A stretch of 64,000 bases of DNA from the NCBI RefSeq assembly GCF_050920415.1, contig NZ_CP169309.1, one strand, 5' to 3'. Each line of letters begins with the position of its first letter. Within the stretch, counting starts at the first letter, position 1. The position numbers and the translations under genes were made by a program. Below, piece after piece: positions 10,349 to 64,000 of this stretch. The DNA comes from Escherichia coli (GTDB lineage Bacteria; Pseudomonadota; Gammaproteobacteria; Enterobacterales; Enterobacteriaceae). The notes under the pieces were generated by a model. That model did not search any database. It saw only the letters and a list, made by a program, of their open reading frames with translations, and was not told where the DNA came from.

Positions 10349-10465
10349 GCAGTTAAGATAGCAAAACTTAAATGATTTGTTACATGAATCAGTTAAATGT
10401 GTGATGCGTAGCATTTTTATTAAAAAAATTAATGTGTTTCAGTCAATTGCGAAAGGATGATCACA

Positions 10466-11119
10466 ATGAAGAAAATTGGCGTAATTCTGAGCGGATGCGG
10501 CGTCTATGACGGTTCTGAAATTCATGAAGCGGTGTTGACGTTGTTAGCTATTTCACGCAGCGGTGCGCAGGCGGTCTGCTTTGCACCGGATAAGCAGCAG
10601 GTTGATGTTATCAACCATTTAACTGGCGAAGCGATGACGGAAACGCGCAATGTGCTGATTGAAGCGGCACGAATAACGCGCGGTGAAATCCGTCCTCTGG
10701 CTCAGGCCGATGCCGCTGAACTGGATGCGTTGATTGTGCCGGGGGGGGTTGGCGCGGCGAAGAATTTAAGCAATTTTGCCAGTCTTGGTAGCGAATGCAC
10801 CGTTGACCGTGAATTAAAGGCGCTGGCACAAGCGATGCATCAGGCCGGAAAACCGCTTGGTTTTATGTGTATTGCCCCGGCGATGCTGCCGAAAATTTTC
10901 GATTTCCCGCTGCGTTTGACCATCGGTATTGATATCGATACCGCAGAAGTGCTGGAAGAGATGGGCGCGGAGCATGTGCCGTGTCCTGTCGATGATATCG
11001 TGGTTGATGAAGACAATAAGATTGTCACCACCCCGGCATATATGCTTGCGCAGAACATTGCAGAAGCGGCGAGCGGCATTGATAAGCTGGTTTCCCGCGT
11101 GCTGGTTCTGACTGAATGA
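10466..11119 (+). CDS. elbB: DJ-1/PfpI-family glyoxalase ElbB
   Basis: ATG at 10466 ([21 protein letters not shown]...) gives 217 aa; class I glutamine amidotransferase-like fold. Confidence 0.93.
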
Positions 11120-11844
11120 GTAAAAGCCGCTTAACGGTGTTTAGTTTCGTTCGCCGTTTTCTTCTACGGTTAATGGTTGTCCTCGCCGTTTTCTGGGGCG
11201 GGGGCATCGCGTTGTTTAGCGTTGCGCCTGTTCCTTTCTCAGCGGTAATGGCCGAGCGACAAGTCAGCGCCTGGCTGCATGGCAATTTTCGTTACGTGGC
11301 ACATTCTGACTGGGTCAGTATGGATCAAATCTCGCCGTGGATGGGACTGGCGGTGATTGCCGCAGAAGATCAGAAGTTTCCTGAGCACTGGGGCTTTGAT
11401 GTCGCTTCCATTGAGCAAGCCCTGGCGCACAACGAGCGCAATGAAAACCGTATTCGCGGCGCATCAACGATTTCTCAGCAAACAGCCAAAAATCTCTTTT
11501 TATGGGATGGACGTAGCTGGGTACGAAAAGGGTTGGAAGCCGGATTAACGCTGGGGATAGAAACAGTCTGGAGCAAAAAGCGTATCCTGACGGTTTACCT
11601 GAATATCGCCGAATTTGGCGACGGTGTGTTTGGCGTCGAAGCTGCGGCACAACGTTATTTCCACAAACCCGCGAGCAAACTTACCCGGTCGGAAGCTGCG
11701 TTACTGGCTGCCGTATTACCTAATCCACTGCGTTTCAAAGTCTCCGCGCCATCGGGCTATGTGCGTAGCCGTCAGGCGTGGATTTTACGGCAGATGTATC
11801 AGTTAGGCGGTGAGTCGTTTATGCAACAACACCAGCTGAATTAA
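11116..11844 (+). CDS. mtgA: Monofunctional biosynthetic peptidoglycan transglycosylase
   Basis: 242-aa ORF with N-terminal TM helix and GT51 transglycosylase motifs; start overlaps the elbB stop (ATGA). Confidence 0.94.
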
Positions 11845-12473
11845 GCTTCGCGCGAAGTGAGGGCCAGCGTTTTGCTCTCACGTGGTTGCAGATCTTTCTG
11901 TAGGGCAATAGCCAGTGCCGGCTGGGCGATAAACCGTTTCCATAACCGCTCTTGCTTTCGCTGACAACACCACTTTGACCAGGTCGCCAGTGGAATCAAC
12001 GTGCTTTCACCAATGTTGTCGCAGACGACGGGGATAACCTCTGACTCACTGATGCGGTGACAGAGGATATTCTGCGGCTTCAACGACATCGTCACGATAT
12101 GGTTATCCTGCAAATAACGTTTCAGCTGTTTCAGTAACTGGCGCAGCTGTGCAACGTCTTCTTCGTAACGGCATTGTTCTGCAAATTCGGTCAGCGTAAC
12201 GGAGGGCTTACCGTCGAAATCGGCAATCACATCGTAGACATAACCCGTTCCGCAATCCGTCTCCACGGTACCGTGATAGCGCGGTATTCCACTCCAGTCT
12301 TTTAACCGGCGACCAAGATGCGCGTAATACTTTAACTCACGGCGGATCTCTTTATCACCACCATCACCACGGTGGTAGACAATCTTGATACAGCGTTGGG
12401 CATCTTCCGGATGCGCATAGCATTTCCGATGTCTTCCGGTGCCCAGGGGATTTTGTTCAGATAAGCGAATCAT
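11841..12473 (-). CDS. yrbL: PhoP-regulated protein YrbL
   Basis: ATG at 12473 ([24 protein letters not shown]...) gives 210 aa; its stop codon overlaps the mtgA stop (convergent 4-bp overlap). Confidence 0.9.
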
Positions 12474-12523
12474 ACCATCTCCTGGAAATATTTTCTGACG
12501 ATCTCCAGTATGGTCGAATAACT

Positions 12524-12540
12524 TAAACAAAACCTAAACA
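12524..12540 (-). promoter_or_regulatory. PhoP box (direct repeat TGTTTA-N5-TGTTTA) upstream of yrbL
   Basis: Minus strand reads TGTTTAGGTTTTGTTTA about 50 bp upstream of the yrbL start; matches the PhoP box consensus. Confidence 0.6.
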
Positions 12541-12685
12541 ATGCCTCTTAAGGTTTTCTTAAGGTTCTTCTGAAAGTGAAAAGCGCACAAAATGTACAAT
12601 TTCCGTCATTAATAACGATTTCAGTACGCGCTTTTTTTATTGTCGGGGGGAGCTTGAAGGGATTTGTATGTCAAAGTGATGAAAA

Positions 12686-12958
12686 TTAATCTTCATCAAA
12701 ACCAGAGTTAAAGAGGGCGATAACGGCGGCCAGTGCTTCCTCTTCCTGTGGACCGGTCGCTTCGACTTCAATCTGCCGTCCTTTGGCAGAATCCAGCATC
12801 AGCAGCGCAATAACGCTGTTGGCTTCAGCTTCAGTGCCTTCATCGTTACGTAACAGCACTTCAGCGTCAAAACCCTGCATTAATTCAAACAGCTTCATTG
12901 CAGGCCGGGCATGCATGCCCAGCTTGTTTGTGATTTCAACAGTTTGCTTGACGGTCAT
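12686..12958 (-). CDS. npr: Nitrogen-PTS phosphocarrier protein NPr
   Basis: 90-aa ORF, HPr-like ([20 protein letters not shown]...); overlaps the rapZ stop. Confidence 0.95.
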
Positions 12959-40037: not shown

Positions 40038-40138
40038 TGTCAGCGCCAATGATATAAGACAGTAATTCACCATTTGGATTGTCCGCTCCACCCAACATGT
40101 TGTTTCCTTAAGGTTCCTACACCACAAAGGGAACACTC

Positions 40139-42104
<1,966 letters not shown>

Positions 42105-42165
42105 TGACCAATAGCGGACATTAAAAATGGCGAAAAACGGCCAATAATCTTGGCGTTGACATAAT

Positions 42166-42918: not shown

Positions 42919-42925
42919 TGTCGAA

Positions 42926-60421: not shown

Positions 60422-61417
60422 TCACTGCCATTTACGGTGATACGCGCCAAGAGTGGTTTGTGTGCCTTCGGACATCGACCCGAGCGTCTCCATCCACGCG
60501 CTTTGCGGCACGAAGTTTTGCGGATCGGCCTTACAACGGTCGATAGCCTGACGCCAGACTTTCGCTACCTGGCTGACATACGCAGGGCTACGCTGGCGGC
60601 CTTCAATTTTCACCGAAGCGATATTCGCCGCCATTAACTCCGGCAGTAGCTCAAGGGTATTGAGACTGGTTGGTTCTTCCAGCGCATGATAGCGCTCGCC
60701 GTCCACCAGATAACGCCCTTTACACAGCGTCGGATAACCTGCGTTTTCGCCGTCCTGATAACGGTCGATCAGCACTTCGTTCAGGCGGGATTCCAGCCCC
60801 TGCGGCGTTTGCTGCCAGCGCACGAAACGGGCCGGAGAACATGCCCCCACGGTGTTGGGCGACTCACCCGTCAGATACGACGACAGATAGCAACGACCTT
60901 CCGACATAATGCACAGACTGCCGAAAGCGAACACTTCCAGCGGTACAGGCGTGACCCGCGCCAGTTGTTTCACCTGATGAATCGATAACACGCGCGGCAG
61001 CACCACGCGGGCAACGTCAAAATGGCGATGATAAAAGTGAATCGCCTCTTCATTGGTCGCCGAAGCCTGCACTGACACATGACGCTCAATATGCGGGTAT
61101 CGCTGGGCGGCGTACTCCAGCATGGCGAGGTCGGCGAGGATCAGCGCGTCGGCACCCAGCTGCGCCGCCATATCCACGGCGCGCTGCCAGCGGGCGTAAC
61201 CGTCCGGATGCGCAAAAGTGTTAATCGCGATGTGAAGTTTGCGGCGATGTTGATGGACAAAACTCACCGCTTCCTGCAATTTTTTCTCGGTAAAGTTAAG
61301 GCCGGCGAAGTGACGGGCATTGGTATCATCTTTTAGCCCGATATAAACAGCATCTGCGCCGTTTTCGATGGCCGCCTTAAGCGCCGGGAGATTTCCGGCA
61401 GGGCAGAGCAGCTCCAT
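60422..61417 (-). CDS. ubiU: O2-independent ubiquinone biosynthesis protein UbiU (YhbU, U32-peptidase family)
   Basis: ATG at 61417 (MELLCPAGNLPALKAAIENGADAVYIG...) gives 331 aa. Confidence 0.9.
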   Translation of the reverse strand: MELLCPAGNLPALKAAIENGADAVYIGLKDDTNARHFAGLNFTEKKLQEAVSFVHQHRRKLHIAINTFAHPDGYARWQRAVDMAAQLGADALILADLAMLEYAAQRYPHIERHVSVQASATNEEAIHFYHRHFDVARVVLPRVLSIHQVKQLARVTPVPLEVFAFGSLCIMSEGRCYLSSYLTGESPNTVGACSPARFVRWQQTPQGLESRLNEVLIDRYQDGENAGYPTLCKGRYLVDGERYHALEEPTSLNTLELLPELMAANIASVKIEGRQRSPAYVSQVAKVWRQAIDRCKADPQNFVPQSAWMETLGSMSEGTQTTLGAYHRKWQ

Positions 61418-61625
61418 AATTTTTCCTGAAGGGTGCGCTATCAAAACGCAAAAATGTTAACGAACTGGGATTTTAGTTAACCTTGCAGCGACAATTTTTG
61501 ATTTAAGGCAGTTAAAGTTGTATTGGTGGTAGCAGCAATTTCATATGGAATTGTTGATTTATACCGCTATGTTATTTTTCTGATATGGCAAAATAGGATG
61601 ATTGTTGAAACAGGGAGTAAAACTC

Positions 61626-62150
61626 GTGTTGGATAAACTGCGTTCCCGTATTGTGCATTTGGGGCCATCTCTGTTGAGTGTACCGGTAAAACTGACGCCA
61701 TTTGCGCTAAAACGCCAGGTTCTTGAGCAGGTCTTAAGCTGGCAATTCCGCCAGGCGCTGGATGATGGCGAGCTGGAGTTTCTTGAAGGCCGCTGGTTAA
61801 GTATTCATGTGCGTGATATTGACCTGCAATGGTTTACCTCGGTGGTGAATGGCAAACTGGTCGTTAGCCAGAACGCGCAAGCTGATGTGAGTTTTAGTGC
61901 CGACGCCAGCGATCTTCTGATGATTGCGGCGCGTAAACAAGATCCGGACACGCTCTTCTTCCAACGTCGGCTGGTGATTGAAGGCGATACGGAGCTGGGG
62001 TTATATGTGAAAAACCTGATGGACGCCATTGAATTGGAGCAAATGCCGAAAGCCTTACGCATGATGCTGCTGCAACTGGCGGATTTTGTTGAGGCGGGAA
62101 TGAAAACCGCGCCTGAAACCAAACAGACATCGGTAGGTGAACCATGCTAA
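61626..62150 (+). CDS. ubiT: SCP2-domain lipid-binding protein UbiT (YhbT)
   Basis: Start inferred at GTG 61626 (MLDKLRSRIVHLGPSLLSVPVKLTPFALKRQ...) giving 174 aa; divergent from ubiU. Confidence 0.85.
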   Translation: MLDKLRSRIVHLGPSLLSVPVKLTPFALKRQVLEQVLSWQFRQALDDGELEFLEGRWLSIHVRDIDLQWFTSVVNGKLVVSQNAQADVSFSADASDLLMIAARKQDPDTLFFQRRLVIEGDTELGLYVKNLMDAIELEQMPKALRMMLLQLADFVEAGMKTAPETKQTSVGEPC

Positions 62151-62647
62151 TTCGAGTAGAAATTCCCATTGATGCGCCGGGTATTGATGCCCTGCTGCGT
62201 CGTTCATTCGAAAGCGATGCGGAAGCGAAGCTGGTTCACGATCTGCGTGAAGATGGCTTTCTGACGCTGGGGCTGGTGGCGACAGATGACGAAGGTCAGG
62301 TCATTGGCTATGTGGCATTTAGTCCGGTTGATGTGCAGGGCGAAGACCTGCAATGGGTCGGCATGGCACCGCTGGCGGTAGATGAAAAATACCGTGGACA
62401 GGGGCTGGCACGCCAACTGGTCTATGAAGGACTCGATTCGCTTAATGAGTTCGGCTATGCCGCAGTGGTGACGCTGGGCGATCCGGCGCTGTACAGCCGT
62501 TTCGGCTTTGAACTGGCGGCGCATCACGATCTGCGTTGTCGTTGGCCGGGCACTGAAAGCGCCTTCCAGGTACATCGTTTAGCGGATGATGCGCTGAACG
62601 GCGTAACCGGTCTGGTTGAGTATCACGAACACTTCAATCGCTTTTAA
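62144..62647 (+). CDS. yhbS: GNAT-family N-acetyltransferase YhbS
   Basis: 167-aa ORF with acetyl-CoA binding motif ([10 protein letters not shown]); overlaps the ubiT 3' end by 7 nt. Confidence 0.92.
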
Positions 62648-62936
62648 TCTCCGGGGTTTGCAGGCTGCTCAACAGTTCTGCAAACCCTGCGCCTTCCGCT
62701 ACCAGACGCTCTTTTTGCCGTTTGGTCAGTTGCTTGATGCGATATTCCATCCGTAACGCCAGCGAGCGGTCGCCCACTGGCGCGGAAAACGCCAGCGTCA
62801 GTTCTCCTTTCCCGCGCAGTGCTTTCGCCCCTTTTCCGCTTTGGTGCTGCTGATAGCGGCGTTCAACATCCGTGGTGATCCCGGTATAAAGCTTATTGTC
62901 GGCGGTACGGATCAAGTAAAGAAACCAGGGTGTCAT
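62634..62936 (-). CDS. yhbQ: GIY-YIG nuclease-superfamily protein YhbQ
   Basis: ATG at 62936 ([31 protein letters not shown]...) gives 100 aa; 3' end overlaps the 3' end of yhbS by 14 nt. Confidence 0.9.
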
Positions 62937-62986
62937 CGTCTGCGTCACATGTTAAGGTCAGGCCCACAGTATAAAAGAGAACAGCT

Positions 62987-63409
62987 ATGGAAACACTCAC
63001 CGCCATCAGCCGTTGGCTGGCAAAACAACATGTTGTCACCTGGTGTGTGCAGCAGGAAGGGGAATTGTGGTGCGCCAATGCCTTTTATCTTTTTGATGCA
63101 CAGAAAGTTGCCTTCTACATTTTGACGGAGGAAAAAACGCGTCACGCGCAGATGAGTGGGCCGCAGGCGGCAGTTGCTGGAACGGTAAACGGTCAGCCGA
63201 AAACGGTAGCGTTAATTCGCGGTGTGCAGTTTAAAGGTGAGATCCGCAGACTGGAAGGTGAGGAAAGCGACCTTGCGCGCAAGGCGTATAATCGTCGCTT
63301 TCCGGTTGCCAGAATGCTGTCGGCGCCGGTGTGGGAAATCCGGCTTGATGAAATCAAATTCACTGACAACACGCTGGGCTTTGGTAAAAAAATGATTTGG
63401 CTACGTAGC

Positions 63410-63430
<21 letters not shown>
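62987..63430 (+). CDS. yhbP: Pyridoxamine 5'-phosphate oxidase-like FMN-binding protein YhbP
   Basis: 147-aa ORF; recognised as YhbP. Confidence 0.9.
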
Positions 63431-63966
<536 letters not shown>

Positions 63967-63967
63967 T

Positions 63968-64000
<33 letters not shown>

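Follow-up and report, generated by a model that had tools for sequence, protein, structure and literature searches.

Three convergent gene pairs with overlapping coding ends in Escherichia coli and a hairpin at the yhbS 3' end that lies within yhbQ

Introduction

How do two genes that face each other end their transcripts when their reading frames run into one another, and does the resulting overlap serve a purpose? The question is raised by three gene pairs, yhbS/yhbQ, yhbP/yhbO and mtgA/yrbL, in a stretch of 64,000 nucleotides of Escherichia coli DNA (contig NZ_CP169309.1), referred to here as the window. An initial annotation of the window had described their shared 3' ends and suggested transcriptional interference or mutual antisense regulation. 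In the following, the overlaps are compared with reference annotations, published maps of transcript ends and the corresponding loci of other Enterobacteriaceae.

Three gene pairs with shared coding ends

The first pair consists of yhbS (62144-62647, plus strand), which codes for a GNAT acetyltransferase, and yhbQ (62634-62936, minus strand), which codes for a GIY-YIG nuclease of 100 amino acids (aa) whose Pfam domain spans aa 4-76. Both reading frames cover the 14 nt at 62634-62647, with the yhbQ stop codon at 62634-62636. Next to them, yhbP (62987-63430, plus strand; 147 aa) and yhbO (63410-63928, minus strand), which encodes a DJ-1/PfpI deglycase of 172 aa with a DJ-1_PfpI domain at aa 3-168, share the 21 nt at 63410-63430, where codon stands opposite codon and the yhbO stop occupies 63410-63412. 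The third pair is formed by the peptidoglycan glycosyltransferase gene mtgA (11116-11844, plus strand) and yrbL (11841-12473, minus strand), coding for a protein of the PhoP network; its overlap is the 4-nt palindrome TTAA at 11841-11844, which reads TAA on each strand and places the yrbL stop at 11841-11843. All six genes are present in the open reading frame list and in RefSeq, and all of the six proteins except YhbP match a Pfam family over the cut-off (GNAT, GIY-YIG, DJ-1/PfpI, Transgly and YrbL-PhoP_reg). YhbP, for which Pfam gave no hit at E <= 0.001, is conserved over 80 Enterobacteriaceae loci, and orthologues of each of the four yhb proteins occur across the Enterobacteriaceae. Taken together, Pfam matches, orthologues and annotation identify both genes of each overlapping pair as genuine protein-coding genes on opposite strands.

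The overlap lengths of 14, 21 and 4 nt are identical in the RefSeq annotation of NZ_CP169399.1 and in K-12 MG1655, so that the lengths given in the initial annotation are borne out for each pair by the open reading frame list, RefSeq and the K-12 annotation alike. Since 3' overlaps are set by stop codons alone, a reassignment of start codons could not abolish them.

Neither the layout nor its occurrence at these genes is new. Eight convergent pairs are annotated in the window, with spacings of -4, 47, 40, 155, 7, 117, -14 and -21 nt, and three of the eight overlap. For E. coli as a whole, 75 convergent coding overlaps have been counted (Huvet & Stumpf 2014, PMC4161906). Relating this count to the density of convergent pairs in the window, scaled to the genome, yields our own estimate of a base rate of approximately 12-14%, against which three or more overlapping pairs among eight are expected with a probability of about 0.06-0.09. 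A local enrichment of overlaps was rejected on this ground, the excess being mild and non-significant. The three pairs do not differ in any essential respect from the tail-to-tail overlapping pairs of Huvet and Stumpf, which likewise have short 3' coding overlaps that arise by stop-codon movement and which are more conserved than non-overlapping neighbours (PMC4161906); the sole slightly unusual feature is that two of the pairs stand side by side in an alternating + - + - block.

Moreover, yhbO-yhbP, yhbQ-yhbS and yrbL-mtgA are all among the 165 convergent excludons of MG1655 obtained with ExcludonFinder, a catalogue whose entries are pairs with RNA-seq-defined transcripts overlapping in at least 50% of 58 MG1655 transcriptomes (Sanmartin et al., NAR 2025, PMC12288877). 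The core idea of the initial annotation had thus already been published at the level of a catalogue, and the overlaps were known from both the reference annotation and the excludome. As in other convergent excludons, neighbours on opposite strands have overlapping transcripts at very short or negative spacing; unlike in these, the coding sequences overlap here too, beyond the untranslated regions (UTRs). Strictly, the term excludon further requires that the two genes exclude each other's expression and that RNase III processes the duplex; the three pairs are placed in this class by their transcript overlap. The overlaps as such, being annotated, catalogued and common, therefore matter little, and attention shifts to how the transcripts end.

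Where the transcripts end

The steady-state 3' end of the yhbS mRNA corresponds to position 62696 on the plus strand of the window (K-12 3300206, minus strand), a TRS 'Primary' terminus derived from RNAtag-seq and Term-seq (PMC10687069, Supplementary Data 2-4). This coordinate was checked against the K-12 sequence and an ungapped alignment of K-12 to the window. The end lies 49 nt beyond the yhbS stop codon and 7 nt beyond the stem of a hairpin, and a U-tract is missing. With the end at this distance from the stop codon, complementarity between the yhbS mRNA and the yhbQ coding sequence covers the final 63 nt of the latter instead of 14. The yrbL mRNA end was mapped by Term-seq in two conditions to 11744 on the minus strand (K-12 3349181/2, plus strand; PMC7815308, Supplementary file 1); it is located 97 nt beyond the stop codon, within mtgA, where the fold places it at the base of a stem-loop. 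A further reproducible Term-seq 3' end is found inside the yrbL open reading frame, 129 nt in (window position ~12344, minus strand; K-12 3348581, plus strand; PMC7815308), and may represent a premature-termination or processing site. The 3' ends of yhbQ, yhbP, yhbO and mtgA were not found among the published 3'-end entries listed, the tables of Adams et al. contain no Term-seq 3' ends within the yhb cluster (PMC7815308), and these genes do not appear in the TERMITe supplements.

Regions of Rho-dependent termination come from the bicyclomycin experiment of Adams et al. (PMC7815308, Supplementary file 2), which measured Rho dependence in the yrbL, mtgA and yhbP directions. Read-through in yrbL sense, antisense in mtgA, peaks at 11226 on the minus strand (K-12 3349699, plus strand) with a Rho score of 14.6 and a significance of 3e-54. 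The opposite, mtgA-sense peak is antisense in yrbL at 12117 on the plus strand (K-12 3348808, minus strand; Rho score 3.2, significance 2e-5). In yhbP sense, the peak lies antisense in yhbO at 63800 on the plus strand (K-12 3299102, minus strand; Rho score 4.8, significance 2.7e-9), that is, 370 nt beyond the yhbP stop codon. No bicyclomycin-sensitive region is reported for yhbS or yhbQ in the same study (PMC7815308).

These data agree with the proposal that the convergent transcripts are antisense to each other over the stop regions. The published ends of yhbS at 62696 and of yrbL at 11744 both fall beyond the overlaps, 49 and 97 nt past the respective stops, and not upstream of them, which is the reverse of the outcome that the initial annotation had named as a refutation. 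The excludome lists all three pairs as well, so that the transcripts overlap in vivo. The accompanying statement that there is no room for a terminator holds only in part: intergenic room is indeed missing, but elements that form transcript ends are present within the coding sequence of the partner, namely a conserved hairpin in yhbQ that serves yhbS and, on the antisense strands of yhbO, yrbL and mtgA, regions of Rho-dependent termination. The locus illustrates how convergent genes that are compact and lack an intergenic terminator can have their end-forming hairpin and Rho sites placed within the reading frame of the neighbour.

A hairpin inside the yhbQ reading frame

The stem-loop in front of the yhbS mRNA end spans 62652-62689 on the plus strand. 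It is an inverted repeat with a perfect 10-bp core (62654-62663 paired with 62678-62687), located in the yhbS 3' UTR and at the same time within the yhbQ coding sequence, where it encodes aa ~83-95 of YhbQ, downstream of the GIY-YIG domain. The 49-nt yhbS 3' UTR has a minimum free energy of -24.3 kcal/mol (z -5.0), and none of 200 shuffled sequences was equally stable; against dinucleotide shuffles, two runs gave z-scores of -4.3 and -5.0. No exceptional structure was predicted after the stop codons of yhbQ, yhbP, yhbO, mtgA and yrbL (z -1.2 to 0). The yhbS hairpin is a GC-rich stem-loop as expected of an intrinsic terminator, while the sequence that follows the stem, UGCGCCUUC, is not the U-rich tract that such a terminator has, and a scan with promoter and terminator consensus sequences around each of the three overlaps gave no hit at any of them and revealed no canonical intrinsic terminator. 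An Rfam E-value scan of 61400-64000 returned just two sub-threshold chance matches.

Does the hairpin merely follow from the YhbQ protein sequence? When yhbQ of E. coli was recoded synonymously, the native yhbS 3' UTR reached -24.9 kcal/mol compared to -12.8 kcal/mol for the recoded versions, none of which (0/200) was as stable. Across the 80 Enterobacteriaceae loci on which the structure tests drew, recoding of 77 loci gave z < -2 in 44% after the yhbS stop and in 12%, 10% and 0% in three control 3' regions. A shuffle test of the 60 nt after the yhbS stop, carried out with no selection of sequences, gave z < -2 in 38% of 79 loci, compared to 9%, 10% and 0% after the stops of yhbQ, yhbP and yhbO.

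Covariation was analyzed in an alignment of 45 sequences, which were picked as looking alignable and are biased by this selection. The RNAalifold consensus of this set is weak (-0.34 kcal/mol), as the register of the inner stem varies from genus to genus, and an outer stem of 8 bp was hence tested explicitly. It is paired in 91% of the alignment cells compared to 81% in column shuffles (0/500), and pairing falls to 28-58% once the partner strand is slid. Compensatory changes occur in four of the eight outer-stem pairs; in columns 24/55, for instance, 25 G-C pairs stand against 17 C-G pairs. In Salmonella, a change from Gly to Ala in one arm of the stem is offset by a synonymous Thr change in the other. 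Escherichia, Citrobacter, Trabulsiella, Buttiauxella, Franconibacter, Cedecea and Dryocola show a strong hairpin. In some Enterobacter and Klebsiella another hairpin occupies this position, whereas Kosakonia, Phytobacter, Pseudocitrobacter and Kluyvera have a weak structure or none.

From these sequence comparisons, selection on the RNA (or DNA) structure at the yhbS 3' hairpin appears likely, restricted to some lineages. The small addition of this work to the published catalogues is a hairpin at the yhbS 3' end that is embedded in the yhbQ coding sequence and appears to have been kept by compensatory and synonymous changes. The 3' sequence of yhbQ would thereby be under a protein-coding and an RNA-structure constraint at once.

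Origin and persistence of the overlaps

The same 80 loci show how the overlaps are built. In most of them, yhbS and yhbQ overlap by 14 nt; lengths of 4 (TTAA), 17 and 25 nt also occur, and separation of the two genes is rare. The overlap between yhbP and yhbO measures 21, 15 or 4 nt wherever yhbO is present. In each pair, one protein has a conserved C-terminus and the other a variable one: the YhbS tail ...LVEYHDHFNRF is conserved in 79 loci and the YhbO tail is conserved as well, with values per position of approximately 0.8-0.96 for YhbS and YhbO and of 0.2-0.8 for YhbQ and YhbP. The stop codon of the variable partner is supplied by the conserved one. Antisense to the Phe-Asn codons of yhbS, TT[C/T]-A reads T[G/A]A, so that yhbQ finds its stop with either Phe codon. 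In the other pair, Leu167 of yhbO is encoded by TTA, whose complement is the yhbP stop TAA, and this Leu codon is TTA or CTA across the loci; the synonymous choice of Leu codon consequently toggles the overlap between 21 and 15 nt. It is because the conserved codons of the partner create the stop that the length of 14 nt is steady in one pair and switches between 21 and 15 nt in the other. A variable tail that reads into a constrained partner fits the model of stop-codon movement, and under this model a conserved overlap length requires no selection for the overlap itself.

As judged from their spread over the Enterobacteriaceae, the overlaps are old. About 27 of the 80 loci lack yhbO, among them those of E. 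albertii, E. whittamii, many Citrobacter, Trabulsiella, Buttiauxella, Kluyvera and Raoultella, a distribution which suggests repeated loss. Where yhbO is missing, yraR directly follows yhbP and YhbP ends 7 aa earlier; in E. albertii (locus L010, 1351-2451), YhbP has 140 aa as compared to 147 aa, with yraR next to it.

Passive overlap or regulatory coupling

The explanation that we regard as probable is that the three pairs are ordinary, long-established tail-to-tail overlaps of the E. coli core genome, with transcript ends formed inside the coding sequence of the partner and an overlap that is mainly passive. The variable tails of YhbQ and YhbP run into the conserved C-terminal codons of YhbS and YhbO until a stop codon is reached, and mtgA and yrbL simply share their TTAA. 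Beyond its own stop codon, each transcript would be untranslated and C-rich and would for this reason be terminated by Rho; 3' exonucleases would then degrade it as far as the first stable hairpin, and this would set the steady-state end. RNA-RNA complementarity would accordingly extend over approximately 60-100 nt or more, not 4-21 nt, and the overlap would be mainly the passive outcome of compaction and of the position of the stop codons. Past most of the stops, the transcripts contain more C than G. The antisense strand of coding DNA is generally C-rich, and these C/G ratios therefore fit Rho loading only weakly and non-specifically.

A known class of transcripts behaves in a comparable way. 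Rho-dependent transcripts may end just after stable stem-loops without U-tracts, as Rho terminates diffusely downstream and exonucleases trim the RNA back (Dar & Sorek 2018, PMC6061677). The yhbS and yrbL ends, which are located just past a stable stem-loop (7 nt after the stem in yhbS, at the stem-loop foot in yrbL) and lack U-rich sequence, resemble this class, and so do the Rho-dependent regions downstream at yrbL/mtgA and yhbP. Two points differ: the hairpin that would protect the yhbS mRNA also codes for a part of YhbQ on the other strand, and Rho dependence of the yhbS end is presumed. Weak intrinsic termination or RNA polymerase collision may instead give rise to the yhbS end.

It is conceivable, if unlikely, that the overlaps are kept since each gene represses its partner, either by polymerase collision or by RNase III cleavage of the duplex; transcription of ubiT-yhbS would in this case lower yhbQ, and yhbP would oppose the stress gene yhbO. 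Mutual regulation of this kind, as put forward in the initial annotation, is plausible as a putative property of these pairs. The excludome entries of all three pairs are in line with such a function, as are the conservation of the arrangement across the Enterobacteriaceae and the observation that synteny is higher in excludon pairs than in other neighbour pairs (PMC12288877); the conserved arrangement and the higher synteny could reflect selection for coupling. The yhbS 3' hairpin, apparently selected although it lies within yhbQ, points in the same direction. On the other hand, validation by p19 capture of double-stranded RNA failed for convergent excludons in general (PMC12288877), the conserved codons of the partner fully account for the fixed overlap length, and the repeated loss of yhbO gives no sign that the pairing is needed. 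In the sole screen that touches the locus, deletion of yhbQ or yhbP on a yhbS plasmid hardly altered the screened phenotype. Regulatory coupling, if any, would be secondary and probably weak.

A narrower proposal, which we hold to be doubtful, concentrates on the hairpin at 62652-62689. It would be a selected dual-use element whose two strands specify YhbQ aa ~83-95 and the 3' end of the ubiT-yhbS mRNA, respectively. Such an element would force a sense-antisense overlap of ~63 nt and make yhbQ expression respond to transcription of the ubiT operon; the pair would then be an evolutionarily maintained excludon with its terminator in the coding sequence of the partner. A regulatory coupling between yhbS and yhbQ would, if real, tie anaerobic ubiquinone synthesis to the DNA-damage nuclease YhbQ, which is speculative.

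Collision might also position the ends: the hairpin of the nascent yhbS RNA would pause the polymerase, and a head-on encounter with polymerases from yhbQ would end both transcripts. Single-molecule experiments showed that collisions at defined positions between convergent genes require a stem-loop in the nascent RNA (Wang et al., bioRxiv 10.1101/2022.10.23.513370), and the yhbS hairpin, which has no U-tract, would need help to terminate. The resemblance to the bidirectional terminators and programmed collisions of Wang et al. extends to the convergent genes and the one stem-loop near their boundary. The described bidirectional terminators, however, consist of a single intergenic hairpin flanked by an A-tract and a U-tract that ends both transcripts, whereas here there is no intergenic region, the A/U flanks are missing and the hairpin is within the coding sequence of one gene. 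This hairpin is upstream of the yhbQ stop codon; polymerases halted there would yield non-stop yhbQ mRNAs, and it can therefore sensibly serve only the yhbS direction. In addition, the genes are probably weakly expressed, which would make frequent collisions unlikely. Positioning by collision is for these reasons considered improbable. An annotation artefact, with a wrongly called or shorter gene in each pair and no real overlap, was rejected as next to impossible, as nothing but the missing Pfam match of YhbP speaks for it and as the stop codons are fixed by the sequence, the yhb orthologues reach the same C-terminal regions in many genera and the Pfam, RefSeq and K-12 assignments concur.

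Other features of the window

Passive overlap with ends formed inside the partner remains the preferred reading for the three pairs, whose surroundings show several further features. Upstream, yhbS overlaps ubiT on the same strand by 7 nt (ATGCTAA, 62144-62150); judged by this overlap, yhbS is probably co-transcribed and translationally coupled with this anaerobic ubiquinone gene. In the middle of the four-gene block, yhbQ and yhbP are divergent, with only 50 bp between their start codons (62937-62986). A promoter scan of this interval detected no consensus sigma-70 promoter, and the promoters of both genes are probably located inside the adjoining coding sequences, which would add a 5' transcript overlap to the block; the yhbQ/yhbP pair is absent from the published list of divergent excludons (PMC12288877).

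The window is chromosomal E. coli DNA and is approximately 99.99% identical to NZ_CP169399.1 (strain MFDS1022581), one insertion aside, and K-12 MG1655 is approximately 97% identical to it in the regions of interest. Among about 5,400 complete E. coli genomes, only 3-8 reach an identity of at least 99% to 61500-64000 and 10400-12700, and the window would therefore represent a comparatively rare lineage or a recombinant segment.

The insertion is an IS21-family element, ISEc62 (2121 bp, 40039-42159), which disrupts the phosphoethanolamine transferase gene yhbX, is missing from the same site in NZ_CP169399.1 and implies a 7-bp target duplication. It contains istA (40139-41185) and istB (41307-42104); the istA reading frame comprises 348 aa, is followed by a gap of ~120 nt to istB and may be truncated. 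In the reference genome, yhbX and argG are also convergent, with a 7-nt gap between their stop codons (window ~42919-42925, both stops), and they likewise appear in the list of convergent excludons (PMC12288877). In the window, yhbX, the upstream partner of this pair, is broken by the IS element.
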